This document shows positions 1 to 52,826 of a stretch of 64,000 bases of DNA, one piece after another. The position numbers and the translations under genes were made by a program. This DNA is from an uncultured virus (IMG/VR IMGVR_UViG_3300020398_000005). Its lineage: Duplodnaviria; Heunggongvirae; Uroviricota; Caudoviricetes. Under the pieces are notes generated by a model that saw only the letters and a list, made by a program, of their open reading frames with translations, did no database searches and was not told where the DNA came from. Numbering within the stretch: the stretch's first letter is position 1; every line of letters starts with the position of its first letter. The DNA lies in IMG/VR virus record IMGVR_UViG_3300020398_000005, positions 1 through 64,000 of that record, one strand, 5' to 3'.

Positions 1-80
1 TTCCTCACTACAGGCATCTTAATCGGGTCTGGTGATTTTAGCTTTTTCGGCCTTACCGGGCCTCTGAATCTAATTGGCAT
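1..80 (-). CDS. 5' part of a fourth 'MPIRF-module' gene (runs off the window edge)
   Basis: Manual translation from ATG at 80 (TAATG overlap with the stop of 80-1246) gives MPIRFRGPVRPKKLKSPDPIKMPVVR. Confidence 0.9.
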   Translation of the reverse strand, partial: MPIRFRGPVRPKKLKSPDPIKMPVVR

Positions 81-1246: not shown

Positions 1247-1248
1247 GG

Positions 1249-1836: not shown

Positions 1837-1845
1837 ACGATATCC

Positions 1846-2637: not shown

Positions 2638-2654
2638 TCTTATCCCTTAAAAGA

Positions 2655-12772: not shown

Positions 12773-13186
12773 TTATAGACTTAACAGAACTTTGTCTATC
12801 GCACCGTGTGTAAGCTTGAGATCAGGTATCTGTAAACTGTCAGTGCTTATGTAACTTCTGTCTTGCACAAAGCGTAAGAATGTAAAGTTACCGCAGAAGG
12901 TAAATGCCGCAACGCCAGACTCAGGGTCATCGTTTAACGGGAATTCGATGAAGGCGCCGTCACAAGAACACGTATAGCCTCGTAACGTTATATCAAACCA
13001 ATCGTCGTCGTCTGGGTTTAGTGAAAGGGTGCCTTGTATCTTTATACGGCCTATGAAATCCTGATAGTGGATAGACACGGTGTGCAGGCCATCTACACTA
13101 CCGTACCATCCGTCAGCGCGTACACGCTCACCTACATAATTCCATTCTTGACCTGTATTAGATGTAAGAAGAACGGGTTGTCTCAT
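12773..13186 (-). CDS. Hypothetical phage protein (DGWYGxxDGLHTV motif), probably late
   Basis: 137 aa, first gene of the structural block, with CTAAATA upstream. Confidence 0.6.
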   Translation of the reverse strand: MRQPVLLTSNTGQEWNYVGERVRADGWYGSVDGLHTVSIHYQDFIGRIKIQGTLSLNPDDDDWFDITLRGYTCSCDGAFIEFPLNDDPESGVAAFTFCGNFTFLRFVQDRSYISTDSLQIPDLKLTHGAIDKVLLSL

Positions 13187-13239
13187 TGGGTATCCTACTA
13201 GAAAGTTTTATCTTTCCAGTATTTAGTGATACCATTTTA

Positions 13240-14085
13240 TTAGCTGGCTACTAGGCCGTATTGTATTACCGCTAGTGTTAGTGATTCTTTCGGGATTCCT
13301 AGTACGGTGATATCGTCTAGATGAAGCTCGATGGCATCACGTAGTTCGTTAGGTAGTTGCCCTTTGTTCATGTCATGATCCATGATATAACAACCGTAGC
13401 GATAGAAGTCCATTAAATCAGCTTTGGATGGCATAAACACAGGCTTGCCCATAGTGATAGTCCAGCCTGTACTTTCTAATTTAGATTCAGTCATACCATT
13501 ACAACGACTGATCACAGTGTTAGGTATACCGATAGTGGTCTCGTCACGGACTAGTTTCACCACCGTCTCGTAGTCTTCTTTAAAGTTAAGCACAACAATG
13601 GCGTTGGCCATTCGCATACATATCTCGTCATTGCGCTTATCATTATGAAGTCCAAATGTACGGTAATGTGCTATGATATAGAAGCTGCCTGAATCAGGAT
13701 CCAGCTTTAAGATGTCGAGTGTACCGTTCATCATACGCAGGTAATACTTTTCGTCACCGTTTTGGTATGCAACATTACCATCAACGCCGGTATTCACATA
13801 CATTAAGTCGGATGCGATTTTTAATTTGCCGTCGAAGTCGTCTTCCCGTACTGCCGCTAAAAAGGTTTTAGAACTGCGGTACATCTTTACGCGCGGTGAT
13901 TTGAATTGTTGCTCAATCACATATGATGCGCCGCGCACCCACTTTTCTACGCGTGCGGTGTGGTTCTTCAAATCTAGTACCTCTGCAGGTGATAGATAAG
14001 AAGTCTCCTTTTTGTGCACGTCGAGTAAGGTAGTCAAGCAAGCAATAAACGACGGTATCGATTTTGTATACTGTTTTTGATGCAT
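13240..14085 (-). CDS. C-terminally tagged array protein (ends IPKESLTLAVIQYGLVAS)
   Basis: 281-aa ORF with C-terminal motif; no recognisable domain. Confidence 0.8.
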   Translation of the reverse strand: MHQKQYTKSIPSFIACLTTLLDVHKKETSYLSPAEVLDLKNHTARVEKWVRGASYVIEQQFKSPRVKMYRSSKTFLAAVREDDFDGKLKIASDLMYVNTGVDGNVAYQNGDEKYYLRMMNGTLDILKLDPDSGSFYIIAHYRTFGLHNDKRNDEICMRMANAIVVLNFKEDYETVVKLVRDETTIGIPNTVISRCNGMTESKLESTGWTITMGKPVFMPSKADLMDFYRYGCYIMDHDMNKGQLPNELRDAIELHLDDITVLGIPKESLTLAVIQYGLVAS

Positions 14086-14087
14086 AA

Positions 14088-14954
14088 TTAATCCACTACT
14101 TGGTACTGATCCTCAATACCGTTTAATTTGACTTGTGCTATTATATTGTTTTTAACCTCGTCGTCAAGGTTTTTAACGCGGCCAAGCTCATTTATGTTGA
14201 TAGTTTGGTTATAAGAATATCCGTGATCGTTTAATAGTTCGCTTGTCTTTGGTTTTGCCACATCACTTATGTACTCTACGGTGCTATCAAGCAACGGACC
14301 GTAACGTCTGAGTACCAGCCATCCTTTCTTATACTCGATACCATGAGTCCCAAAGCTATGGTCTATCAATGCCAGCTTCGAGTTACCGTCAGTGATATCA
14401 CTATCCGGGACTTCTTCACAGTATTGAATTGTATCAACACGACCCGTCTGCGCGACAGTATGGTACCGCACAAACTTTCTGTCGCTGCGCACTACTAGCG
14501 AACAATTACCGACTGTGCCTTTGACTGCGTGTATCTCATAGCTCGGACTGTCATCAACACCTGCCGGTGTAAGATTCATTTTGGTAGACACGTCTGGACT
14601 GCCTGCTCGGTCGGCTGTGCGCGTTATTGTTATGAAGCATTTCCCGGACTCAGGAAACCCGGTGCTAATCCTCATGATACGCCGTATGGCACTAAATGCG
14701 ACAACGTTTATCTTTGCGCCGGAACTTGTGGTGAATTTAGACTTAGTACCACGCAATATTGGCTCATTCAATTCGTTCCATTCAAACTCGCTTTCTACAT
14801 AGTCAAAAAATAGGTTAGCAGCCGTGTTCACTTGTACTATCATGTGGCGCAGTTTGGCAGCATCTGTAGCCGGGTGTTCTAGCGAAAATACCGTTTCAAG
14901 TCTCCTAACAATAATCTTTAGGTTAGCTTCGGCGATATCAAGAATACTTTCCAT
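14088..14954 (-). CDS. C-terminally tagged array protein (LDDEVKNNIIAQVKLNGIE...)
   Basis: 288-aa ORF with a variant motif. Confidence 0.8.
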   Translation of the reverse strand: MESILDIAEANLKIIVRRLETVFSLEHPATDAAKLRHMIVQVNTAANLFFDYVESEFEWNELNEPILRGTKSKFTTSSGAKINVVAFSAIRRIMRISTGFPESGKCFITITRTADRAGSPDVSTKMNLTPAGVDDSPSYEIHAVKGTVGNCSLVVRSDRKFVRYHTVAQTGRVDTIQYCEEVPDSDITDGNSKLALIDHSFGTHGIEYKKGWLVLRRYGPLLDSTVEYISDVAKPKTSELLNDHGYSYNQTININELGRVKNLDDEVKNNIIAQVKLNGIEDQYQVVD

Positions 14955-15787
14955 TATTTTAAGTCTCCCCTAAGACGCAATTTCGCTATAGTTGCAACCT
15001 TTTCTTCATCGGATAAATTGTCAATCTCCATGAAGCGATTGGCGCCTACTATGACACGGTACTGGTTGTTAAATACACCATCCAAGTCGCCTGCGACAGA
15101 GGTCAATAACGGTACCACATCCGGTGTTATCTCGTCTACTATTCTTAACTTACTACTGTCCGCATGCTTAGTCACCAACCACCCGTTGATGTGCTTGACC
15201 GGAAGAGCCGGATCCTGCGGGTAGACTGCGCAACATGACACCGGCATGCCTCGTTCATCTTTGTCCGGCTCTTCTATCCTGTATACCAAGAGTGAAGTGT
15301 CTCCCATATACATGATGTGTGTTTCACCTGGGCTACGTAATACGACTGATGCACCGCGGTGCGGTTCGCGTGCTACAAAGCATGATATATTGTTTCCAGT
15401 AGATTCAAACCCGTATAAGGTAATCTCTGAATCCATAACGAAGCTTACTATACGGTCTGGCTTGTAAGTGTAATCAGGCGGCACTGTGCTATGCGCTGCG
15501 GCGATTACATTCGCAGTAGTAAAACGGTAATAGTCAACTGTTTTTCTAAGCGTGGTGAGTGACTTGCTGGTAAAATATGCGGTGCCTTGTATATCACCGC
15601 GTGTCACGTCCCAGTACATGGTACCCATCGAATGCAAGGCAGTAACGCACCCAATTAAATCAAGAATGGTACCCGATATGGTATCTTTGATAGTTGTGCT
15701 TTTTATTGTAGCTAGCGAATCTTTGAGTACAGCAGGGGCTTCAAGAACTGCCTCTGCTATTACTCTATCCATAGACGTAGTAGTCAT
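14954..15787 (-). CDS. C-terminally tagged array protein (LSDEEKVATIAKLRLRGDLK)
   Basis: 277-aa ORF; shares a GWLV segment near the C-terminus with 14088-14954. Confidence 0.8.
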   Translation of the reverse strand: MTTTSMDRVIAEAVLEAPAVLKDSLATIKSTTIKDTISGTILDLIGCVTALHSMGTMYWDVTRGDIQGTAYFTSKSLTTLRKTVDYYRFTTANVIAAAHSTVPPDYTYKPDRIVSFVMDSEITLYGFESTGNNISCFVAREPHRGASVVLRSPGETHIMYMGDTSLLVYRIEEPDKDERGMPVSCCAVYPQDPALPVKHINGWLVTKHADSSKLRIVDEITPDVVPLLTSVAGDLDGVFNNQYRVIVGANRFMEIDNLSDEEKVATIAKLRLRGDLK

Positions 15788-16530
15788 ACCATCCCCTGTA
15801 TACGTAACATAGGCAGTGCTATATTATTGGCTAGTAAAGGTTCATATGTCGCTACTACTGATTTCAAACTATAGTACTCCACCCGCTCAATCAACCACCT
15901 GTGAACTGTCTTTAGTTCAACCGAGTCGCTGATTTTTTTCTTTTCCTGTGTTACTGCGTTGCTGTCTAATGTGTTGAAATCAAATTCAGTAGACCACGAC
16001 ACCCGATCAACATCACGGTTTTGCTCAGACGTAATTTTAATAAAACCTTGCTCCGTTGTTCCGATTGTGTCTGTCACCGTAAACGAACCGTGGTAGCCGT
16101 GAGCCGGCACCACAAGATTATAACTAAGGTAACGATCACGTTCCATATCTTTAATGATGAACTTGCTATTGTTTAATAAAGCAGTGTACTTGAGCGCCCC
16201 TCTACTATAAAGGTTAACTACATGGCTAGTAACTGTTCCGCGCTTGTACTCCACATCGTATTGGGTAACAGGAGGCTTTGTTTGCTTAGCCGAGTTTCTA
16301 AGGCACCTATGATGCATGTGCATCATCATCGCAACCATTGGACGTTTCTGCTTGTTGTGAAAGTTAAGGAACGCCCAGCGCACGAACAACATTAGACGCG
16401 ATTCGTCTGAATTTGGCAGAGACTTTAATGGCTTTCTAAAGCTGCGCGTTTTGTTATGCGCCGATGCTTGATAAGCCTTAGTCGGCAAATATACGTCGTC
16501 CCATATATGATTAATCATCTCATATCCCAA
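15784..16530 (-). CDS. C-terminally tagged array protein (NIALPMLRIQGMV)
   Basis: 248-aa ORF; true start probably the ATG in the ATGA overlap (MINH). Confidence 0.8.
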   Translation of the reverse strand: MGYEMINHIWDDVYLPTKAYQASAHNKTRSFRKPLKSLPNSDESRLMLFVRWAFLNFHNKQKRPMVAMMMHMHHRCLRNSAKQTKPPVTQYDVEYKRGTVTSHVVNLYSRGALKYTALLNNSKFIIKDMERDRYLSYNLVVPAHGYHGSFTVTDTIGTTEQGFIKITSEQNRDVDRVSWSTEFDFNTLDSNAVTQEKKKISDSVELKTVHRWLIERVEYYSLKSVVATYEPLLANNIALPMLRIQGMV

Positions 16531-17342
16531 TTTAATAATGCGTTACTTATTACTTCTTTTGAACAGAAGCCTCGTACCAATACCAATAAGTCACGTATGT
16601 TACCGAACGTCCTTATTTCATCACTACTGTCACGGTAAATCCACATAGAGCTAGTGAGTGTGAATTCTCCAGTATCGGAGTCATACGCGTAAGAGTGGTA
16701 ATTCTTATCTAGTGTGTTCCAGTCAATTACCGTAGTCCATATCGAGTACGACACCAACTTCGAAGGGAACCCGTCTCTAGTTGTGCCTTTATAGTTCATA
16801 CGGTAAACTGACGTTTCTTTATAGCTGCGCCTAGAAGTAACAGTAAATTCCATTAGCCCTGTGCTAAACAGGCCACCTCGTATGAATTCTACCAAGACCA
16901 CAGCAAAACCATCACCGGTAGCCATTTCTGTTAACGTTACGCCCCTATGCGTCGAATAATACACATTGTATACAAGTCGATCCTTAAAGTAAACATCAAT
17001 ATCAATGCCATATTCTCTAGCAGTCTGGTAGTGTACCTGTACCGTAATGTGGTAGTCGGTGTTGAAAGAAGTTTCTTCTTTTCCTATAGTCGTATTCATA
17101 ACCTTTTCGACTGATCCGCCACCGCATACTGCATAAAAGGACTTGAGCATGCGTTCTTTTAAGAGCCATGTACTGAGCGCGATGTCAGAACTATTCCCTT
17201 GTTTATTCTTCCTTAGTAGTGCACGACACACGGCGTACCAGGTTTTGCCATCTAATACTTGACTATACACATTATGCGAGTTCGTGGCGTGTTCGTGCAT
17301 TGTAGAGAACAAATTACCAAACAGTTTCAAGTCAACATCCAT
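16515..17342 (-). CDS. Array protein with degenerate tag (CSKEVISNALLNWDMR)
   Basis: 275-aa ORF; start is embedded in the upstream gene's TAT-GGA. Confidence 0.8.
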   Translation of the reverse strand: MDVDLKLFGNLFSTMHEHATNSHNVYSQVLDGKTWYAVCRALLRKNKQGNSSDIALSTWLLKERMLKSFYAVCGGGSVEKVMNTTIGKEETSFNTDYHITVQVHYQTAREYGIDIDVYFKDRLVYNVYYSTHRGVTLTEMATGDGFAVVLVEFIRGGLFSTGLMEFTVTSRRSYKETSVYRMNYKGTTRDGFPSKLVSYSIWTTVIDWNTLDKNYHSYAYDSDTGEFTLTSSMWIYRDSSDEIRTFGNIRDLLVLVRGFCSKEVISNALLNWDMR

Positions 17343-18276
17343 ACTGTAACCTCATCATAGCCATATCTTCTTCTGGCATTAATACTGTCCCGAGTTTTTC
17401 CTGTTCCACTAGTATGCGGCCGATGTGCGTACGCACAGAGTCGTAGTCGTGCGGGTTGCTAGCTGTAAGCAACCCAGACATAGAGAAGCAATCTATCTCA
17501 AGCCCATTATCATCCCGGCGGTATCTTATCGCGCCTGCGCGGTATAGCCCCTTCGCCACAATAGTGCCAGTGCCATTAACACGGTAAGCAGAAAATACCG
17601 GCCTATTAACAACGATTTCTCGCATGCACAATGACGCTGCCGCAGGACAGACTATCGGTATACTACTGAACGGCACTGTGAACTTCGCGGTGACTCGTAA
17701 GGCTAGTGTATTAGCGTCTTTTAAGAAAGGCTTCTCAGAAGGTATTGCGGCCTCTACGTGGTCGCAATTATAACCATCATGACGCAAGTAAATGGCCAAT
17801 TGCTTGATTCTTTCATATATCGGGATAGCTGGATGGCCGGTAATCGTGTACTCGATACTAGACGTTCTCACTATGCCATTCGGGGTTTTTCTGCGCAGTT
17901 CGACAGTGACTGAGTAACTTGCCTCTATACTAGTACTAACATTCGCAACGTACCGCACTTCAGCTAGGTAGTTCTTGCTAATTTGCCAGGCAACCGTCAT
18001 ACCGACATCAGCCCAATTGGCCTGTCTGGACCTTATACTAAAAGTACCCAAGTCGTTTAGCATGAAAGCTTCGTTCAAATTCTTGTAAACGGATAACTTA
18101 TCTGCTATCGCGGCTATCCCGGTACCTTCATCAGAAACAAGTTTCAAAAACATCCAAAAGTCGAACGGTTCATCTGATCCTTTACCGATAGACGCGAAAC
18201 GATATAATTGTCGGTAATCATTCATTGCGATTTCAGCAATAGCAGCACTATGCCTACAAAGTGTTTCAAATACCAT
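17332..18276 (-). CDS. C-terminally tagged array protein (MPEEDMAMMRLQYGC)
   Basis: 314-aa ORF; shares an REI..RP.F segment with 18266-19126. Confidence 0.8.
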   Translation of the reverse strand: MVFETLCRHSAAIAEIAMNDYRQLYRFASIGKGSDEPFDFWMFLKLVSDEGTGIAAIADKLSVYKNLNEAFMLNDLGTFSIRSRQANWADVGMTVAWQISKNYLAEVRYVANVSTSIEASYSVTVELRRKTPNGIVRTSSIEYTITGHPAIPIYERIKQLAIYLRHDGYNCDHVEAAIPSEKPFLKDANTLALRVTAKFTVPFSSIPIVCPAAASLCMREIVVNRPVFSAYRVNGTGTIVAKGLYRAGAIRYRRDDNGLEIDCFSMSGLLTASNPHDYDSVRTHIGRILVEQEKLGTVLMPEEDMAMMRLQYGC

Positions 18277-19126
18277 AATTGAGAGCCATAATTGTTGCGT
18301 CAGTATCGTTTAGTATTCTCAGGCCTGTTTCATCTTCTGCCTCTCGTACTTCTTTTAAGTGATGCACAGGCGTCAACCAATCACCACTTAATTCGTCGTA
18401 GCCGAACCCAGCTCTTTGGTTTACGACACGACCTTCAATGTCATAGTCCACTACTGCGCGAACCGGCTTGTACGGATTAATGACATAAAATTTAGTGCCT
18501 TTAGAAAACGGATAGTTATCGCCATATACAGCAAATGGACGGCGTAGTATTTCCCTTCGCAACAGTATGCCGACGCCGGTGTATTCTTGGTTCTTTGTTA
18601 AGTAGCGCCTTGTGTATATGTTTCCCGGAACATACGCAGGTATAGCAACATACCGCGACGCGCGAAATTCAACGGCGCCGGCTTTATACACCACCATTGT
18701 TAAATGGCGTGTGGCATTTGATCCACGATCCACGGCACGGTGCCCGCCTGGCATTGACTTATGAAGACCCATAAACAAGCGTGTACGAGATGTGCGCGGG
18801 CTGAGGCGTATAACCGCATCATATCGCTTGCCGGTACCAAAATCAATACCATCTATGTATATGCCGACTGAGCGTATTCTCTCAGAGTTGCGCACGGTAA
18901 TATTCAAGTCGCACATTTTGTATTCGTACTCAAACCCTTCACCATCGCTATCCGATGCATACGGCAGCGCTTCTAATAATTTTTCAGCAAAGTATCGGAC
19001 AGTATTCATGCGCCATTCAGTATATGTTTCATTCATACAGCGCATATAGATCCGCCCAAAGTGTCGCAAGCCGGACATAATAATACCTAGTGTGTGGTGG
19101 TTGAATGCTTCGTTTTTAGAAACCAT
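18266..19126 (-). CDS. C-terminally tagged array protein (LNDTDATIMALNYGI)
   Basis: 286-aa ORF. Confidence 0.8.
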   Translation of the reverse strand: MVSKNEAFNHHTLGIIMSGLRHFGRIYMRCMNETYTEWRMNTVRYFAEKLLEALPYASDSDGEGFEYEYKMCDLNITVRNSERIRSVGIYIDGIDFGTGKRYDAVIRLSPRTSRTRLFMGLHKSMPGGHRAVDRGSNATRHLTMVVYKAGAVEFRASRYVAIPAYVPGNIYTRRYLTKNQEYTGVGILLRREILRRPFAVYGDNYPFSKGTKFYVINPYKPVRAVVDYDIEGRVVNQRAGFGYDELSGDWLTPVHHLKEVREAEDETGLRILNDTDATIMALNYGI

Positions 19127-19871
19127 TTAATATACCCATCCATATTTCTTTAGTTTCAACTGGTGCTAGCTTTCCTGTACTTTTGCGATAGGTGTTAACG
19201 AGCGACATCCGGCGTGCGAGTGTGCTTTCTTCACCATAGTCACGTAAAACACCAGACACTTCCGGTAAGTCAGTTATTTCGAGCGGTAGGCTCCATTCCC
19301 TAGTAACTCTTGTTTCACCTGTTTCGAAGTTCTTAGAACTCACTTGTATTGCAGGAATATGTGCTTTTATCGGTGCAGCATCAGTAAATGTAACGTTGCG
19401 GTATAGGTAACGTATAGTGATCTCGTCGTTTTCGTAATCAATAATAAGCTTCGAACCGCTCAATGAGGAAAACTGAATCGAAATATATTTATATCTACCG
19501 CCTCTGGACACTATATCAAGGCTTAGCGCGGGTTTACGACAAGCAGCAAGGCCGATTCGGCCTTTAAGGAATTCATGCGATACGCGTTCTTCTACGCCTC
19601 GTTTTTGATACACTGATAACTTAACTGTGTTGAAGTAGTCGCTGACTTTGCTACCGATTCGGAGGTGTGTTTGACGATTGCCTATTTCGTGCGTTTCGCT
19701 GAACACACTACCTTTTTTGACTTGGGTAAGGATACGTGCGTTGTGCTCAACTATTGCTTCAAGCTTTTCTCGAAGCGCATCGAAATCAGGTTTACGCGCA
19801 CGAGATACGGTAGGTAGTATCTCCATCACGTAACCATAGAACTCTTTAGTTAGGCCGTACATGTCAAACAT
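19116..19871 (-). CDS. C-terminally tagged array protein (VETKEIWMGILNGF)
   Basis: 251-aa ORF with AAGGAG SD and a sigma70-like promoter upstream. Confidence 0.8.
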   Translation of the reverse strand: MFDMYGLTKEFYGYVMEILPTVSRARKPDFDALREKLEAIVEHNARILTQVKKGSVFSETHEIGNRQTHLRIGSKVSDYFNTVKLSVYQKRGVEERVSHEFLKGRIGLAACRKPALSLDIVSRGGRYKYISIQFSSLSGSKLIIDYENDEITIRYLYRNVTFTDAAPIKAHIPAIQVSSKNFETGETRVTREWSLPLEITDLPEVSGVLRDYGEESTLARRMSLVNTYRKSTGKLAPVETKEIWMGILNGF

Positions 19872-19897
19872 TAAATGCTCTCCTTTATCATAAGCAC

Positions 19898-19926
19898 AAT
19901 ATACGACACAAACAACCGTTAGTAAA
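19898..19926 (-). promoter_or_regulatory. Sigma70-like promoter inside the array
   Basis: TTTACT-N17-TATATT; the same hexamers recur at 52766-52794. Confidence 0.6.
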
Positions 19927-19943
19927 GAAAGTTTTCTAATTGA

Positions 19944-20720
19944 TTATGTGTACTGTATTCTGTTTGTGAAAATCTCAGGATAAGTTAAAGGTGGTTGGTT
20001 ATATTGTATGCGCTTTTTGTCGACATAGTCCATAGCGCTGTTGAAACTACGTTCACCGACAATTGCCCATTCTTGCTGCAATAAGCGCTCGCTAGACGGC
20101 GTGTCATTTACGAAATCGGTGTTTAATACAAACTGGCGCGGTAGGTGTACTCGTAAAGGTACCCGTTCCTCCCAAAGTCTGCGCTGGGATAGGGTTTCGT
20201 AATTGGCCAGAGTTAGCCCTTCGTCAGTTAATGTCACTGAGCGAGATCCAAAAAAGTCAGACTCGGTGCGCATGCACAAACCGGCAGAGCTAAGTTCTGA
20301 TTTCTTTGTTAAGTTAACATTCATAGAAACGTCAAGAACGCGTCTATACGGGTGTGTTTTTCGTCCACGCTTGCTAGGATACGTGCGCAGTGCGTAAACG
20401 TTGAAAGACCAGTACATGCTCGCAAGGACAGAGCGACCTACACGTATTTTAAATTCGCGGCCATTGACTACCAAATTTGGTGATGAATGCTCCCAAGTAC
20501 CAGTGCTTTCATCGTTCTGGTTCCTGAGTTCAGCACAAGCCGTCGCGATTTCAACAATAGTAGTGTGCCATTTCGTGCGAAGCGCTCTCATGGTGTCATA
20601 AGTAGCTTGCGGATCGGGGCGTCTGACTTGACTAACACCGGTAACAATACCGAAGCCAGTTTTTATGAAATCAAGTGCACAGCTTTCAGCTGCCTGTATT
20701 ATTGCTTCACTAGGCTTCAC
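19944..20720 (-). CDS. C-terminally tagged array protein (LTYPEIFTNRIQYT)
   Basis: 258-aa ORF with GTG start. Confidence 0.8.
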   Translation of the reverse strand: MKPSEAIIQAAESCALDFIKTGFGIVTGVSQVRRPDPQATYDTMRALRTKWHTTIVEIATACAELRNQNDESTGTWEHSSPNLVVNGREFKIRVGRSVLASMYWSFNVYALRTYPSKRGRKTHPYRRVLDVSMNVNLTKKSELSSAGLCMRTESDFFGSRSVTLTDEGLTLANYETLSQRRLWEERVPLRVHLPRQFVLNTDFVNDTPSSERLLQQEWAIVGERSFNSAMDYVDKKRIQYNQPPLTYPEIFTNRIQYT

Positions 20721-21432
20721 AAGTTACTCCGTGTTGTAAACAAAGCATTGAGCGCTCAGCGGGGTCAGCTACGTGCTTTAATTTGTCGTATACTTGCATT
20801 GCAAGCGATCCGCCCATATAGTTTCTACCGCGCTCAACGATAGTGCTATCCGGGTGTAAGCGCCATACAGCAAGTGTCGGTGAGTCCATAAACAGTGCGT
20901 TTTTGTTTGTAACGCCAACTTCGCGTGAAATATTGATTATTTTTTCTTTCGGCGATGTTGAGTCAAACATTTTTTTATGACTTTTTTTCAACGATGCGTC
21001 AATGTTAAATGGGAAGTGGTATGTCGCTGCTTCAAGGCTGACGTGTTTAACACGATATTTGTCGTCGCTATATGAACTGAACACTGTACTCAGCTCAACA
21101 TATGCACGGTCATGCAAGTTTACTCTGCCGTTTGAACGTTCTAACATACTAATTGTAGCAGTTACTCGCACGGTGCCCGGGCGATAATCTTCAAACGTAT
21201 TGTTTTCAGCCACATCTAAAGTCAAGCAATACTTGGTACGCTTTGTATCAAGCAATGTCATCGGGGCGCCGCGGTACAGATCAGCTTTGAGCAACGTATC
21301 ACATAAACCAGGAATCAAATTAAGGATTTCTTCAGCGCCTTCGTACGATGCACTATCACGAAGTCTAAAGTGGTGACGCGCTTTGATTAACTTTTTCACA
21401 AACGTATTGATTTCAGCAGCTAATTCTTTCAT
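20710..21432 (-). CDS. C-terminally tagged array protein (ADPAERSMLCLQHGVTCEA)
   Basis: 240-aa ORF. Confidence 0.8.
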   Translation of the reverse strand: MKELAAEINTFVKKLIKARHHFRLRDSASYEGAEEILNLIPGLCDTLLKADLYRGAPMTLLDTKRTKYCLTLDVAENNTFEDYRPGTVRVTATISMLERSNGRVNLHDRAYVELSTVFSSYSDDKYRVKHVSLEAATYHFPFNIDASLKKSHKKMFDSTSPKEKIINISREVGVTNKNALFMDSPTLAVWRLHPDSTIVERGRNYMGGSLAMQVYDKLKHVADPAERSMLCLQHGVTCEA

Positions 21433-22085
21433 AAACCTTGCAACCTTGTAAGAGTAATAAGTCTAGTCTTTTCTTCGTCAGCAATGTCTAATCTCTTTAT
21501 CTGTTCAACAACACTGCCACCGCTATAATTGGAATTATAACTGATTGTCTGTTTGGTTGTCAAGCAGATTTCTGCATTTTGTGTCATTGGTATTAGCGGA
21601 AACGTAAGACCAAGTTCAGATCGTAAGTATTCATCCTCTCTAGTCCACGATATATAAGGCTTGCCTGACACATCATACAAAACAAGAGTAATGGAACTTG
21701 TACCAAATCTTGTGTCACTCATTACCACAGTAGTAGGGCTATTATGCTTTGTGATCACCGTAAGCCTACGTGTTACATGGCGCTCTTCGTCATTTGACAG
21801 TATTTGTTTTTGTATCGATAATAACTCAAATCGCCTGGCCTCTACACGAGTTGCGGGCTTACGTGCGCTCACACCTACTTTATGTGTGTCAGTATCGTAT
21901 ATGATCGCATCGCGCATCATAGTCGCGTTCGGGCATACTTCTTTCACTGCGAGGCGACTTAAGCTTTCCATCTGCTCAATAAACAATACCATGGCATCGA
22001 TATCATCTGCTCTTCTTAGTGAACGAACATTGCTGGTTACCAGCTTGCCTATGTGGTTTACAATTTCTAATATTTCATCATACAT
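21429..22085 (-). CDS. C-terminally tagged array protein (IADEEKTRLITLTRLQGL)
   Basis: 218-aa ORF. Confidence 0.8.
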   Translation of the reverse strand: MYDEILEIVNHIGKLVTSNVRSLRRADDIDAMVLFIEQMESLSRLAVKEVCPNATMMRDAIIYDTDTHKVGVSARKPATRVEARRFELLSIQKQILSNDEERHVTRRLTVITKHNSPTTVVMSDTRFGTSSITLVLYDVSGKPYISWTREDEYLRSELGLTFPLIPMTQNAEICLTTKQTISYNSNYSGGSVVEQIKRLDIADEEKTRLITLTRLQGL

Positions 22086-22860
22086 GTTGAAGCCTTAGCA
22101 ATGCGATACGAGACGGGTCAACTTTGTCTTTATTATTACCTAGACGATTGCGTATGTGTATGTCAATATCATTTCGTATGAAATACGCATTACCGCTAAA
22201 CTGTTTATCGTCAGCGCTAAATACCGATGTTTCAATTTCCGGCGATTCCAAAAACAACGGATAGCTTTCTACATTACCTACGTTACGTTTGAACTGCATA
22301 TATGCGGTGCCTGTTTGCGACAATATTTTAATAGGTAACTTAGACATACTGTACGACACACGAATTACTGATCTCGGATCAGACCCGCTCTTACCAGGCA
22401 CATTGGCTGATCGAATAGATAACTTAAATGGTTTCTTTGCTAGGTACGAGTTGGATATTGTTACCGTAAAGCCGTTGTCGCTCTCTGAATTATAAAAGGT
22501 ACTTATTGTCAACGTGATCTCGTGTATGAATACCGATAGTGACAGGCTTTCTGCCTTAAACGGATCCTTTATAAGTTGTATCTGTCTAGGGTATAAACCA
22601 GTCGAGTGTGCTAATTCAGCATAAGACATCGCTTCCACGACTTTGCGGGCTTTGTTGGCTATCGATACATGTGCGCGTCTAGTTCGCTTATACTTGCCTC
22701 TAGTTGTAGTCAGATACAACCTGTTCTTTAACACACACTCGATCAGATCTTTAGTGGTTTTCATATACCGCTTATAGCCAGGCGTGTTATCGTATACTCT
22801 ACGATTCCTAATAGGCTCATATACTCGTTGCGAGAACGTATCTTTATCCATAATGTCCAT
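22078..22860 (-). CDS. C-terminally tagged array protein (VDPSRIALLRLQHV)
   Basis: 260-aa ORF. Confidence 0.8.
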   Translation of the reverse strand: MDIMDKDTFSQRVYEPIRNRRVYDNTPGYKRYMKTTKDLIECVLKNRLYLTTTRGKYKRTRRAHVSIANKARKVVEAMSYAELAHSTGLYPRQIQLIKDPFKAESLSLSVFIHEITLTISTFYNSESDNGFTVTISNSYLAKKPFKLSIRSANVPGKSGSDPRSVIRVSYSMSKLPIKILSQTGTAYMQFKRNVGNVESYPLFLESPEIETSVFSADDKQFSGNAYFIRNDIDIHIRNRLGNNKDKVDPSRIALLRLQHV

Positions 22861-22861
22861 G

Positions 22862-23764
22862 TTAATATTGCTCTCCGAGTACGAACAATGCTGCGGTAGA
22901 CCGCTTTAGTATAGGCCCATGCATCTCTTCAACCAATTTGGCTTCTTCTAAATACTGACGCAATGTTAGCGTTATATCAAACCCGTAACGCCAACGTCTT
23001 AGGTTTAGTTTTAGTTTGTTAGTGCCTGATACCTGCACATACGTAGAAACCACAGGCACAAACGGTCTGAACAATTCTAGTGATTCGTACATCCAATGAT
23101 CCGCGGTACATAGTGCCTTATCAGTCACAGTACATGACATCATACGGACGTCTGTATGTTTATTTGCCACAAACACTATCTCGCCAATATTAGACGAAAG
23201 ACGAACCTTTCTTTCAGCTGAAGGTATACCGTCCCAGTTAGACCATAATCCAGTGCGTGCGGTTGCTGTTACCATACGGTGCTCCATATAATGCTCATAT
23301 GAAGCCCTAGACCAGCGCCTATAGAATACCGCACTTGGTCCATATAACCTTGTCTTAACGAGTTTGCTATGTTTACTGAATGTTATTTGCACCGTATACA
23401 CGACGTCGTTATATTCAATAGTAACACCGTAACTTTCACAAGTGTAATCACCATCCACGATACATACGTTAACGGGATCAACAGTGTGTATCCGCTTACG
23501 CGTCAATGTTACTTTTACGTCAGTGCCAGGCAAACGACACAAGTAAACTGGGTTGAAGTCACCTGACTTTAAGATGGCCGGGCCAATTTCTTCATCAACG
23601 AACGTTATTAAGTCGCCCAGCATCTTATGCACTGCTTTACCTACAGCGACAACGCCTACATCTTCCCGTGGACCAAATCTAAACGACACCTTTCGTCTAG
23701 TTTCAACACGTTCTTTGCGTAGGCGCATTAGGTGCGTCAGTAGTTTGTTTCCTGGATTACGCAT
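22862..23764 (-). CDS. Array protein with degenerate tag (LKRSTAALFVLGEQY)
   Basis: 300-aa ORF. Confidence 0.75.
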   Translation of the reverse strand: MRNPGNKLLTHLMRLRKERVETRRKVSFRFGPREDVGVVAVGKAVHKMLGDLITFVDEEIGPAILKSGDFNPVYLCRLPGTDVKVTLTRKRIHTVDPVNVCIVDGDYTCESYGVTIEYNDVVYTVQITFSKHSKLVKTRLYGPSAVFYRRWSRASYEHYMEHRMVTATARTGLWSNWDGIPSAERKVRLSSNIGEIVFVANKHTDVRMMSCTVTDKALCTADHWMYESLELFRPFVPVVSTYVQVSGTNKLKLNLRRWRYGFDITLTLRQYLEEAKLVEEMHGPILKRSTAALFVLGEQY

Positions 23765-24629
23765 AATTCAACCTCATCAAGGCAAACTGTTCTTCTGTTA
23801 GACGATCACCGATGCACCACTCAGCCACTGTTTCGCAAGAATTGCTTATCTCTGGCAGGGACTCGTAATCAGCGAGATACACGTTTTCTGCTATTACGGT
23901 GTTACTAGTATCGTAATACTTGTCGAAACTAGCAAACATCATGGCAGACTCTTCATTGTTGAGAATATTAGCCCCGGGGTGGTAACGACACGAGATTGCA
24001 TTAGGACCTGGGTTATCGTAGTCAAACCGTCTCATATACACTATCTGTGACCCGTGTTTATATGCAAGTGAATGTCCACGCACCCAGATCGCACATAGCC
24101 CTCTTCTCGAGGAGGCATACGCTAGATGAATAGGGCGCTCGATAGACATGTCTTTGTTTGGGCTGCTCATGTTTATAGTCAACATGTAGTCGTTTCTGGG
24201 CTGGTGTTTATAAAAGTGTAACGTGAAGTCAACATGCACATTACCAGCGACCACAATAGTTACCCGACGAGAAAACCTGTCCCGCAAAGTTACTTTGGGA
24301 TCATACTCTGCTACTTCTTCAAGTTCGACTTTGGGAATGAAATCCACGTTGTATAGCTTAGACGCAATATAAGTAGATAACGATGAGCTGCCGACAAGTC
24401 GAAACACTGCGCGTTCAACCGGGCGGCCTTCATCATCCATTACACGGTTAATACGTTTGGCTACTGCTAGGTGAGTCATCTTGCAATCGTCGGAAAGTGC
24501 ATTGCTTATAGCCTTTATGTTGGCCACAACATCATACCCAAACACGTAGGAATCCTTATAATTTTCCATCACCGTACTCCAATTTAAGTCGTATACGTTC
24601 TTCGGCTGATACGCGGGATAGTATGTCAC
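23757..24629 (-). CDS. C-terminally tagged array protein (LTEEQFALMRLNYA)
   Basis: ORF of up to 290 aa; likely true start is ATG 24569 (MENYKD) after GGAG. Confidence 0.8.
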   Translation of the reverse strand: MTYYPAYQPKNVYDLNWSTVMENYKDSYVFGYDVVANIKAISNALSDDCKMTHLAVAKRINRVMDDEGRPVERAVFRLVGSSSLSTYIASKLYNVDFIPKVELEEVAEYDPKVTLRDRFSRRVTIVVAGNVHVDFTLHFYKHQPRNDYMLTINMSSPNKDMSIERPIHLAYASSRRGLCAIWVRGHSLAYKHGSQIVYMRRFDYDNPGPNAISCRYHPGANILNNEESAMMFASFDKYYDTSNTVIAENVYLADYESLPEISNSCETVAEWCIGDRLTEEQFALMRLNYA

Positions 24630-25296
24630 TAAACTCTACCGGCGAGTCATTTAACATCCACTGTGACCTTAGTACCTGTTTCACCTTACTAAAGTCATCA
24701 ATATCGTACTGGACTGTCATAGTAGCAGGCCGTTCTAATGAATGAATGACAAAATCAGTAGTTATTTGATCTGCATTCATATTAGCCGGATTTAGGTCGG
24801 TATTACTATAATAACCATATGACGTAACACATGGCGTATGGCCGTTAACAATTTTTTTCGTACCGTTTATGTGTTCTGTGGCAAGGTTCATTGACGTTGA
24901 CGAGTTATAAACATACTTGACCGCGTTTGACGTACCGACACCTTTAATAATCATTACAGTAGGCGGCCATTTTCCTTGGCGAGACTCTTCAAGTGAGCGG
25001 GTGGCAATCGCTGCCATTGTTTCACGAGTAAACTGGGTGTGGAATGTCATACCGATACTAGTACGCGTGGCCGGACTCGTAAACATTACGCTAGTCACCA
25101 ACCTACGATTGGCACTCACAACGATGCCGTATTGTCGTTTGATTGCAGGTGCGCGGCCGTTTATGTAAGTGACTGCACAATCATGTAGAGGCGGTACGCC
25201 CACTATGGTTGTCATTGTAGTCATCTTAAAGATAAGGTCTTCAAGATTTCTAGGCAATGCAGATAAACTGGATACCGTGTCTAGCATCGTTGTCAT
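24556..25296 (-). CDS. C-terminally tagged array protein (VSAEERIRLKLEYGDGKL)
   Basis: 246-aa ORF. Confidence 0.8.
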   Translation of the reverse strand: MTTMLDTVSSLSALPRNLEDLIFKMTTMTTIVGVPPLHDCAVTYINGRAPAIKRQYGIVVSANRRLVTSVMFTSPATRTSIGMTFHTQFTRETMAAIATRSLEESRQGKWPPTVMIIKGVGTSNAVKYVYNSSTSMNLATEHINGTKKIVNGHTPCVTSYGYYSNTDLNPANMNADQITTDFVIHSLERPATMTVQYDIDDFSKVKQVLRSQWMLNDSPVEFSDILSRVSAEERIRLKLEYGDGKL

Positions 25297-25362
25297 TAAT
25301 GTTGCCTTCTTTGTTAAACGTGTATATTATTAGATTAACAAAATCGGCAACAAGACACAAGA

Positions 25363-26187
25363 TTATCCGTAATTTAATCTATATAAGAGGTATTCTGAAG
25401 GGCTAAGGTGTCGTTTAAGATAGTAGTCACCCATGCCACCGAGTGCGGATTTCAAATCACATAAATCAATCAGTGTATATGAGCTATGCACTGGTCCATC
25501 GCTGTTCGGTGGCCTATGATGTGATTCATACATAGCAAAGCATTCGTCAACTGCAACGTTTTTTACTCTACCGCTTGGTCTAAAGTCGTCATGAAGAGGC
25601 ATCCAGAGTTTAATTGACCGCCCAAACGGCATAGGCGCGTCAGTCATTTTACGACCTAATACTTTAGCCGGGTTTGGAAGATACGATACCCGTTGGTGAT
25701 AGTCACTTATGGATATAGATAATACTGACCTCCCGCTTGATATTCGCACATCAAGAGCAGGTATACCGTGTGCATGGTTATTCAGAGTGAGCTTTGTTAT
25801 GAAACGAGCGGTATCATTTGGGTTTATTAAACTAAGATATTCTGACTTATTAATCTCCCAAACCTGATCTTTACTGGTGACTGATTTTCCGTTTATCACT
25901 AAATCAGTCATAGGCCAAGCTGGTGACACAGTATCGCCGACATACCTTATACGTGCCTTCACAATTATCCCTGACAGTTCAGTGACACAAGAGTGGATGC
26001 ATTTCAAATCATTTGCTAGTTGATCAGCAAAATTACCGAAGTCCTTTTTATGACGTGTCAGTTTACGCACTCGGCGAAAACTACCCAACACGTCATCGAA
26101 GTTAGACGACAGCTCTACTTTCTTGTCACCAAATTCTGCATAACTAATCATTGCATCTCCAAGAGTGAACAGAACCTGCTTGTACAT
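25363..26187 (-). CDS. C-terminally tagged array protein (LSPSEYLLYRLNYG)
   Basis: 274-aa ORF. Confidence 0.8.
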   Translation of the reverse strand: MYKQVLFTLGDAMISYAEFGDKKVELSSNFDDVLGSFRRVRKLTRHKKDFGNFADQLANDLKCIHSCVTELSGIIVKARIRYVGDTVSPAWPMTDLVINGKSVTSKDQVWEINKSEYLSLINPNDTARFITKLTLNNHAHGIPALDVRISSGRSVLSISISDYHQRVSYLPNPAKVLGRKMTDAPMPFGRSIKLWMPLHDDFRPSGRVKNVAVDECFAMYESHHRPPNSDGPVHSSYTLIDLCDLKSALGGMGDYYLKRHLSPSEYLLYRLNYG

Positions 26188-26741
26188 TCAGGCTTCTTGC
26201 TGACTAGATTAAAACGATTCTTAATGCGCGTGATACATAGCTTGATAAGACCTGCTTTTTGGGTAACATCTTCTGAATACTCAAGACCGCGTCGATATAC
26301 AAACCCAGCATTATACGACGCAAGGGCCATAGGATGATTGCCACCACGTATGCGTAACCAGTAGTTTATCTCGTTTATGGCTAGACGCGCACCGAGACCC
26401 TGATCCATCACCAAATCTTGGGCAAGTACGTTTGCCATAAACGATTCCCTGTCTATTCCAAGACGGCTTGTAGCTGTGTCGATATGTATTGCATAAGGAC
26501 CAAAGCTAGGGTCATTTATGTTCATCAAATACTTGCCGAGATTACTTTCCCGCCACGCAATGGCAGGAAGCACAGTCTCGAGACCGTACTCCTTGCCAAA
26601 CTCGTAGCTGGTTACCAATACGTTTGCTTGATCGCTGTTTATCCTGATGTTCGCGTCACAGAACTCATCTATAGCCTGGTGCTGTGTACTACTCACAGAT
26701 AATCCCAACGTAACTCCTACGACAGCGAATATGTTAATCAT
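26148..26741 (-). CDS. SLT-family lytic transglycosylase with N-terminal signal/anchor
   Basis: AIAWRES (catalytic Glu), SFGPYAI and ALASYNAG motifs; hydrophobic N-terminus. Confidence 0.8.
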   Translation of the reverse strand: MINIFAVVGVTLGLSVSSTQHQAIDEFCDANIRINSDQANVLVTSYEFGKEYGLETVLPAIAWRESNLGKYLMNINDPSFGPYAIHIDTATSRLGIDRESFMANVLAQDLVMDQGLGARLAINEINYWLRIRGGNHPMALASYNAGFVYRRGLEYSEDVTQKAGLIKLCITRIKNRFNLVSKKPECTSRFCSLLEMQ

Positions 26742-28045
26742 AGCGTTGTTATGTCATTAATCAAGTGGGCTTCAAACTTGTTGCCGCCGTTCGCTTCTTC
26801 ATCAATAAGACGCTTGGCGAACATAGTTATCTCGCGCACGGTTTCGTAGGGGCTGCACTTGTTTTCTTTTGACAACAAGAGAATCGCTTTAATCATTGCC
26901 GCTTGTGCTTGGTGTGTATGCAACTCAGGATCGTAGTTGTCTGCCACTTCCAAGTAACCGTAGTACTGCATCATACTGAACACAGTGTTATCGAGCCGGA
27001 AACTAGAATCGTACATCGATCTTCCATTGTTGCGAAGAATTTGTATTCCCTCGTTGGCAGCCTGTAGTCCAACTGTCGCAACAATTATATCGTATGCTGT
27101 CTGTACCACATATCCGGAGAATGACATAAACGGATCACTAGGTGCGCCCGGTAGTTCACTAAGAGCAAGACCAAGCAATGCCCCGCTCTGGCCGCAACTC
27201 GAGTGCATCGGATTAGTAAACCAGTGTATGGTATTGTGAAAGGACGCGTGTGCATCTGTACGGTAGTACTCGTTGTTCTTGAATACCTCGGCTTTTAGGC
27301 TTTCGTCAAAACCGATGAATTTTTTCTTATAACTCATGAACGCGTTAACCAAAGACTGTGTTCTGCGGGTAGCTTCCCTGGAGTCATATAGGTGCCCGAT
27401 TTTTGCGCATGACTGCGTCATTTCGATTGGCGAAAACCCGGTCAGCAAAGCTTGTGTTATATTGTCGGCGTACGGCCATTTGGTCAGGTTACAAAAGCCA
27501 CTCAACGTGGCCGCGTGGTTGAATAACAGTGACACCTCGCACGAGTCAGCATAAGAGAAAGTATTAGAGTTCACTTTATTCAAAAAGGTGCCGCAGTCCT
27601 CTCGATCAGCCAGCAGGCGCTCAGCAGTCGTTAAACCGGTTTTATCAGCACGGATCATTCCGTATACGAGCATCGACAGAAGCTTGTACGGGAAGATTGT
27701 CGTACCACGTTCCGTATCATTTGTGCTGTGCATGCCCGGGTGCTCAGGAATAAACGGATCCGGTTTATGTGCTGCCTTTGCCAAAAAGCTTTCAGAATGA
27801 GGTTCTTGGTTAACTGACGCTAGCTTGTCAGCAAGTGCGTTAGACAGTTCAAGCTGTTTGAGTACTTCTTTCTTCTCGTTCGCCTCTCTGATAGACTGCA
27901 CGGTGACCCTGGGCTGCACTACCGAATCAGAGTCGTGTAATTCTGTAGCCAATCGGTACGGTGTTAAGACACCATGTGCGTTCATCTCTTGCATGCTAAA
28001 TTCCTTTGTCTTAGCCGATGCGATGGGTTGGTTTCCGGTGTTCAT
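26738..28045 (-). CDS. Hypothetical protein
   Basis: 435-aa ORF with ATGA coupling. Confidence 0.7.
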   Translation of the reverse strand: MNTGNQPIASAKTKEFSMQEMNAHGVLTPYRLATELHDSDSVVQPRVTVQSIREANEKKEVLKQLELSNALADKLASVNQEPHSESFLAKAAHKPDPFIPEHPGMHSTNDTERGTTIFPYKLLSMLVYGMIRADKTGLTTAERLLADREDCGTFLNKVNSNTFSYADSCEVSLLFNHAATLSGFCNLTKWPYADNITQALLTGFSPIEMTQSCAKIGHLYDSREATRRTQSLVNAFMSYKKKFIGFDESLKAEVFKNNEYYRTDAHASFHNTIHWFTNPMHSSCGQSGALLGLALSELPGAPSDPFMSFSGYVVQTAYDIIVATVGLQAANEGIQILRNNGRSMYDSSFRLDNTVFSMMQYYGYLEVADNYDPELHTHQAQAAMIKAILLLSKENKCSPYETVREITMFAKRLIDEEANGGNKFEAHLINDITTL

Positions 28046-28689
28046 CGTCTATCCTTACTTTTTCTAACCAATGTGAGTATGGTATCGGATATATCTCTGA
28101 ATGGCTGGATTATATCATGCTGAGCAATATCCGGGTTATTGTATCGCGCAACCAATGCGTAATACTTACGGTATAATTCATACATTTCGTTCCAGTCATC
28201 ACACAAACGAAGATAATCTGCGTGAAATTCGGAATCGGTTTTACTGCGTATGAATCCAGTAATGTTAGAGTCGTTGGTGACGTTCATATCCAGCATAGGC
28301 CAATTGTCTGCGCCAGTGCGTATACCAGCAGCGTCTAGGAAGTCTAGATACTCGTGTAACAAGCGAATACTGGCCGAAGTGTCTAACACCTTAATGCCGT
28401 GTACTTTACGATATAGGGTTTCACTGAACGCGATAATTTGATCATCACTGTTAATCGGTACGTCTTCTGATTCGGATTCAGAGTAACGCTGTATAACTTT
28501 TTGATCAACGAGGCTCGCAGCAAGCATGGCTGGATCACCAACTGACGGAGCGCCTGCGGGTGATAGTATAGACATTAGTCTACAAAAGTAAGGACACTCG
28601 CTGTGGTCGTTTGTGCTGAACATCACCACACGTTCGCTGGCCAACGCCTTTAGGTTGGCTTCGATATATTCATCCGGATCTAAAATCAT
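28042..28689 (-). CDS. Hypothetical protein
   Basis: 215-aa ORF with ATGA coupling. Confidence 0.7.
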   Translation of the reverse strand: MILDPDEYIEANLKALASERVVMFSTNDHSECPYFCRLMSILSPAGAPSVGDPAMLAASLVDQKVIQRYSESESEDVPINSDDQIIAFSETLYRKVHGIKVLDTSASIRLLHEYLDFLDAAGIRTGADNWPMLDMNVTNDSNITGFIRSKTDSEFHADYLRLCDDWNEMYELYRKYYALVARYNNPDIAQHDIIQPFRDISDTILTLVRKSKDRR

Positions 28690-29192
28690 CTACTATACTC
28701 CACACAAGTATGGTCTAAGCCGACCAAGTAGGTATCAATAATGAATTCAACTATGCGCCAGTCACCGCCGGCAAGACCGCAGCCGATTTGAGGGTATGCA
28801 ATTCGTATCGGCGGCACTCCGTTAGCTTCGCGTTCAGCGGCAGAGTCACGTAAATCATTACCCAACTCCCTAAAGAAGTCAACCAAAGCAGTGTAGTCGA
28901 CAGGACAGTCTTCAGGTGAAGTTCGCGGGGCGTACTGTGTGTAAGCATTAAGGACAACAAACTCGTGATCGTTTATTGTTAACATCGCAGCCGAAAAGCT
29001 GCCTAGCTTAGAACGATCACCTTTTTCAGTCTGTTCTTTATCAGCTTGCAGCACTGCTTGCCAGCCAGGTCGTCGTGCTATTTGACCCGCTATACCGGAG
29101 CCCATCGCATGCAGACAATTACAGCCGTGAACCATAATGTCGAACTGCGCGTTCTCCATCATTTCGAGTAAATCACCTTTAACTTTTTTCAT
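28686..29192 (-). CDS. Macro domain protein (ADP-ribose / Appr-1-p processing, T4 Tk.4-like)
   Basis: KGDLL, HGCNC..MGSGIA, NAYTQ and PQIGCGLAGGDW motifs. Confidence 0.9.
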   Translation of the reverse strand: MKKVKGDLLEMMENAQFDIMVHGCNCLHAMGSGIAGQIARRPGWQAVLQADKEQTEKGDRSKLGSFSAAMLTINDHEFVVLNAYTQYAPRTSPEDCPVDYTALVDFFRELGNDLRDSAAEREANGVPPIRIAYPQIGCGLAGGDWRIVEFIIDTYLVGLDHTCVEYSR

Positions 29193-46214: not shown

Positions 46215-47018
46215 TCATCCGTAATTTAATCGCAACATAGCAAGCTCGGATTCACTGAGCTCAGTGTGTTGCGCAAATTCAAGGACATCTTTACACCAGA
46301 GACCATTATAGTGAAATTCAGCGATACTATCGCCGCTAGCGGATTCAACTACTACCGCAGGAGAGTGTGTATGATGCATTCTACCAAAACGATGATAGAC
46401 AATCCCTTCTTTGCAATCTACTGTACCCAATGAATTGACATATATTGTGCCGCCGTATTGTACCAAAGAAGGGATGCCGTTGAAAGAATGAGGGCGCCAG
46501 CGGACAGACGAAGAACGATTTTTGTTATAAGGGTGCCTACTATCCATCCCGTTTGTGTCGGCAATGAAAGTAGATAACCTTTCATAATAAACTTCAGTCT
46601 CACCGGGCGCAGTATTAAAGACGCTATGTTCGATTTTTTTGAACTCACTACCTAGTTCGTCAGTGTATACCTCCACAGTAGCATTTTTAACAGGACCTGC
46701 ATACTCTTCAATTATGGCAGCTTTACCGCCATCTCTTACAAAATTAGATCCGTTAAACCACGAGTGGGTGACAATACTGTATTCTTTTGTCTGGTTCGTG
46801 TACTTGGTAATAAACGCAGGTTCGTCGTTCTCCGACTTCACTTCACCTGTCTTGTCACGTATCCAGGTTTCTAGCACTATCTTTTCATTTATTTTCTGGG
46901 GCCTTTTTGCATCGTCGTCCATAAAAATGCTTGGTGCTATACCTAAAGTTTGAACAATGTGTTTGTTATCTGATTTAGTATACTCACGTATACTGTAAGA
47001 GTAGTTATCCATACTCAT
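46215..47018 (-). CDS. Orphan member of the C-terminally tagged family (LSESELAMLRLNYG)
   Basis: 267 aa; contains G.MHH..SPAV / RDGGKAAI segments reminiscent of phage GxLHRxDGPA repeats. Confidence 0.75.
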   Translation of the reverse strand: MSMDNYSYSIREYTKSDNKHIVQTLGIAPSIFMDDDAKRPQKINEKIVLETWIRDKTGEVKSENDEPAFITKYTNQTKEYSIVTHSWFNGSNFVRDGGKAAIIEEYAGPVKNATVEVYTDELGSEFKKIEHSVFNTAPGETEVYYERLSTFIADTNGMDSRHPYNKNRSSSVRWRPHSFNGIPSLVQYGGTIYVNSLGTVDCKEGIVYHRFGRMHHTHSPAVVVESASGDSIAEFHYNGLWCKDVLEFAQHTELSESELAMLRLNYG

Positions 47019-51261: not shown

Positions 51262-51297
51262 GTAACATTTTAAAATGTTACTAGATCTTGTAACATT
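51262..51297. repeat. Palindromic GTAACATT triple element
   Basis: 20-bp perfect palindrome GTAACATTTTAAAATGTTAC plus a third GTAACATT at 51290-51297. Confidence 0.75.
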
Positions 51298-52732: not shown

Positions 52733-52765
52733 AATCTTAAACCTTATTTGTTATTAAGTACGTCG

Positions 52766-52794
52766 AATATAACAAAGGCAACCAAAGTAGTAAA
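52766..52794 (-). promoter_or_regulatory. Sigma70-like promoter
   Basis: TTTACT-N17-TATATT. Confidence 0.6.
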
Positions 52795-52826
52795 CACTTC
52801 TGGTCACTTTTTATATTTTTTTTATT

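Follow-up and report, generated by a model that had tools for sequence, protein, structure and literature searches.

A terminal peptide tag in an ORFan gene array of a marine jumbo phage overlaps the predicted start signals of downstream genes

An array of 16 ORFan genes in a marine giant (jumbo) phage, most of which close with the same tag, a helix of the pattern E-[ED]-x-h-h-[RK]-L-[QNK]-[YH]-G, was analyzed here. The array lies within positions 1-64,000 of a virus record 116 kb long (IMG/VR IMGVR_UViG_3300020398_000005), and this whole stretch of 64,000 nucleotides (nt) is referred to as the window. Our combined findings suggest that the tag is likely a portable docking helix whose codons have been co-opted for ordinary translational coupling to the next gene. 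The overlap of the tag with start signals is ordinary tight gene packing. The junction itself adds little that is new: a Shine-Dalgarno (SD) sequence and a start codon in the last codons of the upstream gene are standard, and translational coupling as such is already known. A useful result is the motif, a helix borne by unannotated proteins of this phage group, tens of them per genome.

A complete record of 310,672 bases (G001) is identical to the window over positions 13000-27000, and a relative (G002) is 89% identical. The capsid protein has 67% identity to that of PA5oct and about 60% to those of 121Q and GAP32, and the phage is therefore PA5oct/RaK2-like; its major capsid protein, core genes and genome size of about 300 kb are those of this group. 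Genes and starts were called with our own script from stop-to-stop open reading frames (ORFs), using an E. coli-type SD consensus, which may not be that of the host.

Tagged ends and the starts within them

The array, its junctions and a solitary tagged gene are as follows, in window coordinates.

13240..26187, minus strand: array of 16 ORFan genes (ORFs of 218-314 codons), most with the tag at their end
17332..17376, minus strand: tag PEEDMAMMRLQYG; GAGGT at 17349-17353 (7 nt upstream), ATG at 17340-17342, overlap of 11 nt; codons the same in G002
18266..18310, minus strand: tag ending MALNYGI; ATG at 18274-18276, overlap of 11 nt; SD not found
19116..19157, minus strand: weak tag ending GILNGF; ATG at 19124-19126 out of AAT GGT, overlap of 11 nt; weak GGA
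19872..19943, minus strand: AT-rich gap of 72 nt; AAGGAG SD of its own plus a weak promoter-like site; no overlap at the tag upstream
20710..20766, minus strand: tag LCLQHG plus tail; GGAG at 20727-20730 (Gly codon of the tag), GTG start at 20718-20720, overlap of 11 nt
21429..21470, minus strand: tag TRLQGL; SD from the AGG codon, 4-nt overlap of the ATGA type
22078..22119, minus strand: tag LLRLQHV; AAGG at 22093-22096, ATG at 22083-22085 within CAT GTA, overlap of 8 nt
23757..23798, minus strand: tag EEQFALMRLNYA; GAGGT at 23771-23775, ATG at 23762-23764 within TAT GCG, overlap of 8 nt
24556..24609, minus strand: tag RLKLEYG plus tail DGKL; GGAG at 24577-24580, ATG at 24567-24569 in GAT GGA, overlap of 14 nt
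25297..25362, minus strand: 66-nt AT-rich gap after tag RLNYG (TAC GGA TAA), not overlapped
46215..47018, minus strand: solo tagged gene, tag SESELAMLRLNYG with CGA and TAC codons; next gene more than 200 nt away

Weak forms of the tag close the array genes at 14088, 15784, 16515, 19116 and 22862. The 15 internal joints have nine distinct spacings: -14, -11 (four), -8 (two), -4 (three), -1, +1, +2, +66 and +72 nt. With the predicted starts, 13 of the 15 fall between -14 and +2 (11 overlaps and two gaps of 1-2 nt), and an SD-like match, weak in several cases, was found at 12 of these 13 tight joints. ATGA also occurs at the genes ending at 16515 and 15784, and TAATG at 14954.

The original prediction had placed five ATG starts (17342, 18276, 19126, 22085 and 23764) inside tag codons. 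All five are present, in frame with the next gene and kept in G002, even where the residues differ: the QHV of the tag at 22078 reads QYA in G002 (CAT GTA to TAT GCG) with the ATG retained. The gene ending at 17332, for example, reads ATG AGG TTA CAG TAT GGA TGT TGA, with ATG 17342 embedded. We infer that these embedded starts are used.

Where no start is embedded, the tag was said to use TAC or CAC instead, at the genes ending at 13240, 19944, 20710, 24556, 25363 and 46215. The codons are indeed as described, but two of these genes probably do overlap the next one, each with a GGAG in the tag. At 24556 this GGAG lies 6-7 nt before ATG 24569, where the next gene is predicted to start (overlap of 14 nt), with an alternative start, GTG at 24629, 74 nt upstream; at 20710 the predicted start is GTG 20720 (overlap of 11 nt), and G002 has GGTG and GTG. 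The gene at 19944 does not serve as evidence either. Its tag reads TAC ACA and therefore could form no ATG, and G002 has TAT at this tag without overlap. Beyond the window, one more tag (G001 stop 137131) contains an ATG in CAT-GG that goes unused in G001; G002 reads CAC there.

Promoter-like sites numbered 38, against 37.6 by chance, and the late-promoter word ATAAATA was below chance. In RNA runs, contigs covered 24 and 26 of the 30 bins, which shows neither transcription nor a single transcript.

The motif in related genomes

Selection of the motif at the protein level had also been proposed. It is upheld by variants of the motif, by long tails after it, by N-terminal copies and by its presence in five other genomes, and these make a stronger case than the codon argument. 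An iterated profile of the motif E-[ED]-x-h-h-[FL]-[KR]-L-x-[YFWH]-G gave 124 C-terminal matches in those genomes (G003, 36-37; G006, 31; G007, 43; PA5oct, 7; Vibrio phage 2.275.O, 6), with 0-4 matches in mid-protein control windows. Atu_ph07 has five terminal matches in the 390 of 490 kb scanned, and GAP32 one weak C-terminal match among 521 proteins. The aromatic position is Phe or Trp in 38 of 114 tags of the other genomes, and therefore no ATG is possible there. Some tags, as in G003, have long tails after the motif. N-terminal matches number 18 in G006 and 16 in G007, with the motif opening tandem arrays straight after Met, a position from which it cannot serve the start of the next gene. 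A comparison fixed beforehand, namely how often overlapped but untagged genes carry the same peptide ending, gave none: in G001, 0 of 30 untagged overlaps of 8-23 nt scored as a tag (one has a faint VHYG).

The carriers are varied and include small proteins of 65-115 amino acids (aa), His-Arg-x-Asp-x-Pro-Ala repeat proteins, a phrog_1843 protein and the ORFans of the window. G001 also holds a second tagged cluster (four genes) and another solo tagged gene. PHROG matches and Pfam matches above cut-off were absent for all 17 tagged proteins of the window (16 in the array and 46215), and a scan against both collections with 28 tagged proteins of kin assigned the motif to no family. Atlas look-alikes of tagged proteins included none with a name. 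A wide relative search with three array proteins returned only themselves or close strains; beyond near-identical strains, neither the array proteins nor the array gave diverged relatives. Both models, each of low confidence (predicted local distance difference test, pLDDT, 57 and 40), show the tag as a helix; the one with pLDDT 57 was used in a fold search, which was uninformative (best Z 2.1). A literature search found no paper on the tag motif, supplementary tables (CBB paralogues, PA5oct) being outside that search. The tag helix appears to be a previously undescribed element; in related giant phages many proteins carry it, at one end or the other.

Between G001 and G002, amino-acid difference is 12.5% in tagged genes versus 3.8% in others, with equal difference at four-fold sites. 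Such faster change is as expected for host-facing proteins.

Several tagged loci stand out in the kin. In G007, 269635-275596 holds about 17 N-tagged paralogues with a different conserved tail (W..I.EEIYE), where TAT GAA TAA starts the next gene at 14 of 19 junctions; this joint is far more uniform than those of the window. About 16 small genes in G006 (262544-268346) open with the tag (MNxEDKLFLKLKY) and have mixed junctions. At the genome ends of G003 (1-4300 and 319000-328096) nearly every small gene is tagged, many with tails of 10-40 residues, and xYL closes nine G003 genes, which have an ATGA overlap and ends of the TAC (T/C)TA TGA type, including TAC TTA TGA. In G001, 133991-138114 holds four tagged paralogues of His-Arg-x-Asp-x-Pro-Ala repeats, whose distant matches are long proteins built of similar repeats; one source has an identical protein under a Sphingobium metagenome-assembled genome, where it is perhaps mis-binned. 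One tagged protein of 77-85 aa is strongly conserved (129 homologues) as PA5oct gp210, G007 L128:4261-4509 and G006 L146:4730-4960. It lies near ClpP in PA5oct and G007 and is the best bait for a partner of the tag.

Codon choice at tagged junctions

The proposed contrast between TAT in overlapped and TAC in non-overlapped tags did not survive. Its TAT half is circular because TAT is forced wherever an embedded ATG is used, and its TAC half is the genome default: before Gly, gene bodies have 183 TAC-GG versus 79 TAT-GG, and 82 CAC-GG versus 46 CAT-GG. NAT occurs in one of seven non-embedded Tyr/His-Gly tags of G001 (p=0.29), and in one of eight non-embedded tags against the wider rate of NAT before G (p=0.08). 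A larger set of 136 tags was composed of 22 hand-picked in G001 and 114 of the 124 profile matches in the five other genomes, the 10 scoring <13 having been dropped. In this set, 14 of 26 non-embedded Tyr/His/Asn-Gly tags have NAT versus 15.1 expected (p=0.69), with the 19126 start counted as non-embedded owing to the anchoring of its weak tag; there is thus no avoidance of NAT. With the genome default, this rules out the TAT/TAC contrast as evidence. Comparing the Tyr codon with overlap status is a circular test, and the valid test is the Arg codon.

Of the 16 tags whose Arg before the core Leu lies 4-13 nt ahead of the next ATG, 15 have AGG as that Arg codon, versus 5 of 21 elsewhere (p=3e-5), with starts chosen without SD information; the AGG background among Arg codons is about 9% (range 6-12%). 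In the phage of the window, AGG is used in 4 of 4 tags in SD range versus CGA, AGA and AGA in the three non-overlapped Arg-Leu/Arg-Ile tags of the window. The claim that the tag doubles as the SD of the next gene therefore holds, though as an instance of a general habit of overlapping genes, since untagged junctions show the same lean (AGG at 94 of 269 overall, 19 of 33 at 7 nt and 19 of 59 at 11 nt).

The further claim of a ready-made start stands in part. An ATG can be spelled at -8/-11/-14 in 11 of 22 tagged ends versus 58 of 318 other C-termini, and among tight ends able to spell it all seven tagged ones use it, versus 18 of 32 others (p=0.03, partly circular). In the other genomes, however, the next gene starts inside the tag in only 6 of 114 cases. 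Overlaps of 8-23 nt make up 8 of 21 tagged versus 30 of 336 untagged junctions (p=6e-4); among overlapping pairs only, the enrichment is not significant (8 of 14 versus 30 of 85, p=0.14).

History of the array

The array had further been pictured as a row of stackable cassettes, with the tag-coding joint as a standard module for stacking, gain, loss and swap, so that new genes arrive already coupled. We consider this improbable. The enrichment of 8-23-nt overlaps at tagged junctions speaks for it, as do the two joints with the best DNA likeness (36 nt at 75%) and the uniform joints in kin (-8 in 14 of 19 in G007; ATGA in the nine xYL genes of G003). Against it, the 15 internal joints have nine spacings, and the same 16 genes stand in the same order in G001, in G002 and in a third strain (run X15), in which one contig over 12500-27000 has 273 substitutions and 0 gaps. 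No joint showed up in any of four runs, and across the three strains, all close, there was no gain or loss. Mean column identity over 13 aligned gene ends is 54%, and the array lacks the standard repeated DNA joint expected of gene cassette arrays (integron-like or homology-joined modules).

With the tag removed, the bodies of the array genes resemble one another slightly (mean Z 0.77 versus 0.02, p=1e-5; best pair Z 5.2), with an adjacency effect at p=0.11; body homology is clear only for the second tagged cluster in G001. This faint likeness fits an old duplication with joints that have since drifted, and the uniform joints of G003 and G007 fit a joint copied with each tandem duplication. 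A search for relatives of the G007 array for copy-number comparison turned up only the G007 record itself. The DNA pattern of the G003 joint was found in 11 stretches, and two other contigs had tagged genes, with no orthologous array.

In PA5oct, ClpA adjoins the homologue of the 12773 gene, and the 17 kb with the array are therefore a lineage-specific insertion. Other genes of the window include a macrodomain gene just upstream of the array (28686-29192), a phage-encoded ClpA-type ATPase and ClpP (30589-32844 and 43042-43608), and a cluster of a MoxR-type AAA ATPase, a second ATPase and a DUF2201/VWA metallopeptidase (51296-55939). A protein family with a common MPIRFRGPV N-terminus occurs in tandem near tail-fibre-like genes (window 80-2637; G001 1-2181 and 97882-102498).

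What the tag may do

On the reading that we hold likely, the tag is an amphipathic helix selected as protein and would be a docking handle by which very different, fast-evolving and probably non-virion proteins could bind one common partner. The array would have grown by old tandem duplication in a tightly packed operon. Because the helix stands at the very end of the gene, its codons fall where the next initiation region must lie. Since Arg-Leu can spell AGGT and Tyr/His/Asn followed by Gly/Ala/Val can spell ATG, selection for ordinary termination-reinitiation would pick AGG and NAT-G when the next start is in range and leave default codons elsewhere. As to the role of the helix itself, docking to one common partner is our tentative choice, put ahead of self-association or a structural role, each of which we think unlikely, and of packaging, which seems very unlikely.

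Could the peptide instead be a by-product of the DNA, in which the need for an SD and an ATG creates the Tyr/His/Asn-Gly ending? Any ATG at -8/-11 does force [YHND][GAVED], the 22078 joint keeps its ATG despite residue change, and in the G007 array the tail varies (YE/YG/HA/NE) round a fixed ATG, so that the explanation holds for that tail. For the tag it is highly improbable: perfect tags occur with CGA/AGA and TAC in the non-overlapped genes 25363 and 46215, none of the 30 untagged overlaps of G001 scores as a tag, and kin have Phe/Trp variants and N-terminal copies; the N-terminal and the non-overlapped copies largely refute it. That the tag signals packaging into the capsid, like that of the internal proteins of T4, or acts as a degron for the phage's ClpA/ClpP, also seems quite unlikely. 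The window does encode ClpP and a ClpA-type ATPase, and shared terminal tags on variable proteins resemble the T4 capsid-targeting sequence. GAP32, however, has ClpA and ClpP and yet only its one weak match, and four tagged PA5oct genes (gp202, gp209, gp210 and gp237) carry no ESI-MS/MS note (tandem mass spectrometry after electrospray ionization), which their neighbours do, although small proteins readily escape such detection. A helix that comes from a common ancestor and serves self-association or structure, with coupling to balance the subunits of mixed complexes, is unlikely as well. It would suit array bodies that are remote paralogues, a 118-sequence family ending in the motif that folds poorly as a monomer (pLDDT 57), and the enrichment of short overlaps for heteromeric complexes reported in a 2023 study (PMC10666635). 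The motif occurs, however, on four or more types of body (70-aa minis, His-Arg-x-Asp-x-Pro-Ala repeats, phrog_1843 and the N-tagged arrays), and these are hard to fit into the core of one fold.

Some of our results weigh against a docking helix with ordinary coupling. The starts are predictions made from sequence. Homology across genomes is by motif score only, because the tags were hand-anchored and the profile iterated, and the AGG count is not independent, because six cases are G003 paralogues. The core of the tag changes only a little less than the bodies do (7-10% versus 10-16%). At 7 nt, AGG is found in 6 of 6 tags versus 19 of 33 untagged junctions (p=0.04), and the higher value in tags leaves room for stronger selection on tagged joints. 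A presence/absence comparison with GAP32 left 30 partner candidates with none singled out.

Should the docking helix be real, much of the dark gene content of these jumbo phages would be organised into one system, and as the motif is present in the cultured phage PA5oct, the partner can be looked for directly. A more elaborate and rather doubtful version is a modular adaptor system, in which the portable 13-residue helix, set at either end of fast-changing recognition domains that number dozens per genome, would dock these on a single machine of the phage or the host, such as an unfoldase-protease, much like F-box helices in eukaryotic viruses; as the helix codons also spell an SD and a start, each duplicated gene would be born translationally coupled, so that arrays expand.

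Comparison with known systems

The T4 capsid-targeting sequence is likewise a short tag shared by variable internal proteins at a hypervariable locus. It is N-terminal and cleaved, whereas the tag of the window phage and its kin is found at either end, and none of four tagged PA5oct genes looked up has a virion mass spectrometry note. Tandem paralogue arrays are known from the jumbo phages 121Q and G (PMC5646251) and, as paralogues, from RaK2 (PMC3622015), and further reports place tandem arrays in this phage group as well (PMC5259590, PMC7824862, PMC7318152). Like these, the window has a lineage-specific tandem ORFan array in a RaK2-like genome; however, the accessible text on 121Q, G and RaK2 speaks of "very similar genes" and mentions no shared terminal helix, whereas the bodies in the window are barely alike (best Z 5.2).

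Long unidirectional phase-1 overlaps of 8, 11 and 14 nt are ascribed by Fonseca et al. (PMC3887535) to the frequent occurrence of ATG in the +1 frame, with no special selection needed. The array shares these lengths, but here a single conserved motif supplies the opportunity (11 of 22 tags versus 58 of 318 other ends), and unlike the usual overlaps of 1 or 4 nt those of 8-14 nt are in the majority (7 versus 4). SD motifs inside the upstream gene are described as typical of overlapping pairs by Huber et al. (2019, PMC6728339). As in termination-reinitiation (PMC6728339, PMC10666635), starts in the array lie a few bases from the upstream stop, with the SD in the last codons of the upstream gene. 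Unlike in those pairs, coupling here is predicted, and the codons concerned belong to a conserved, repeated peptide motif.

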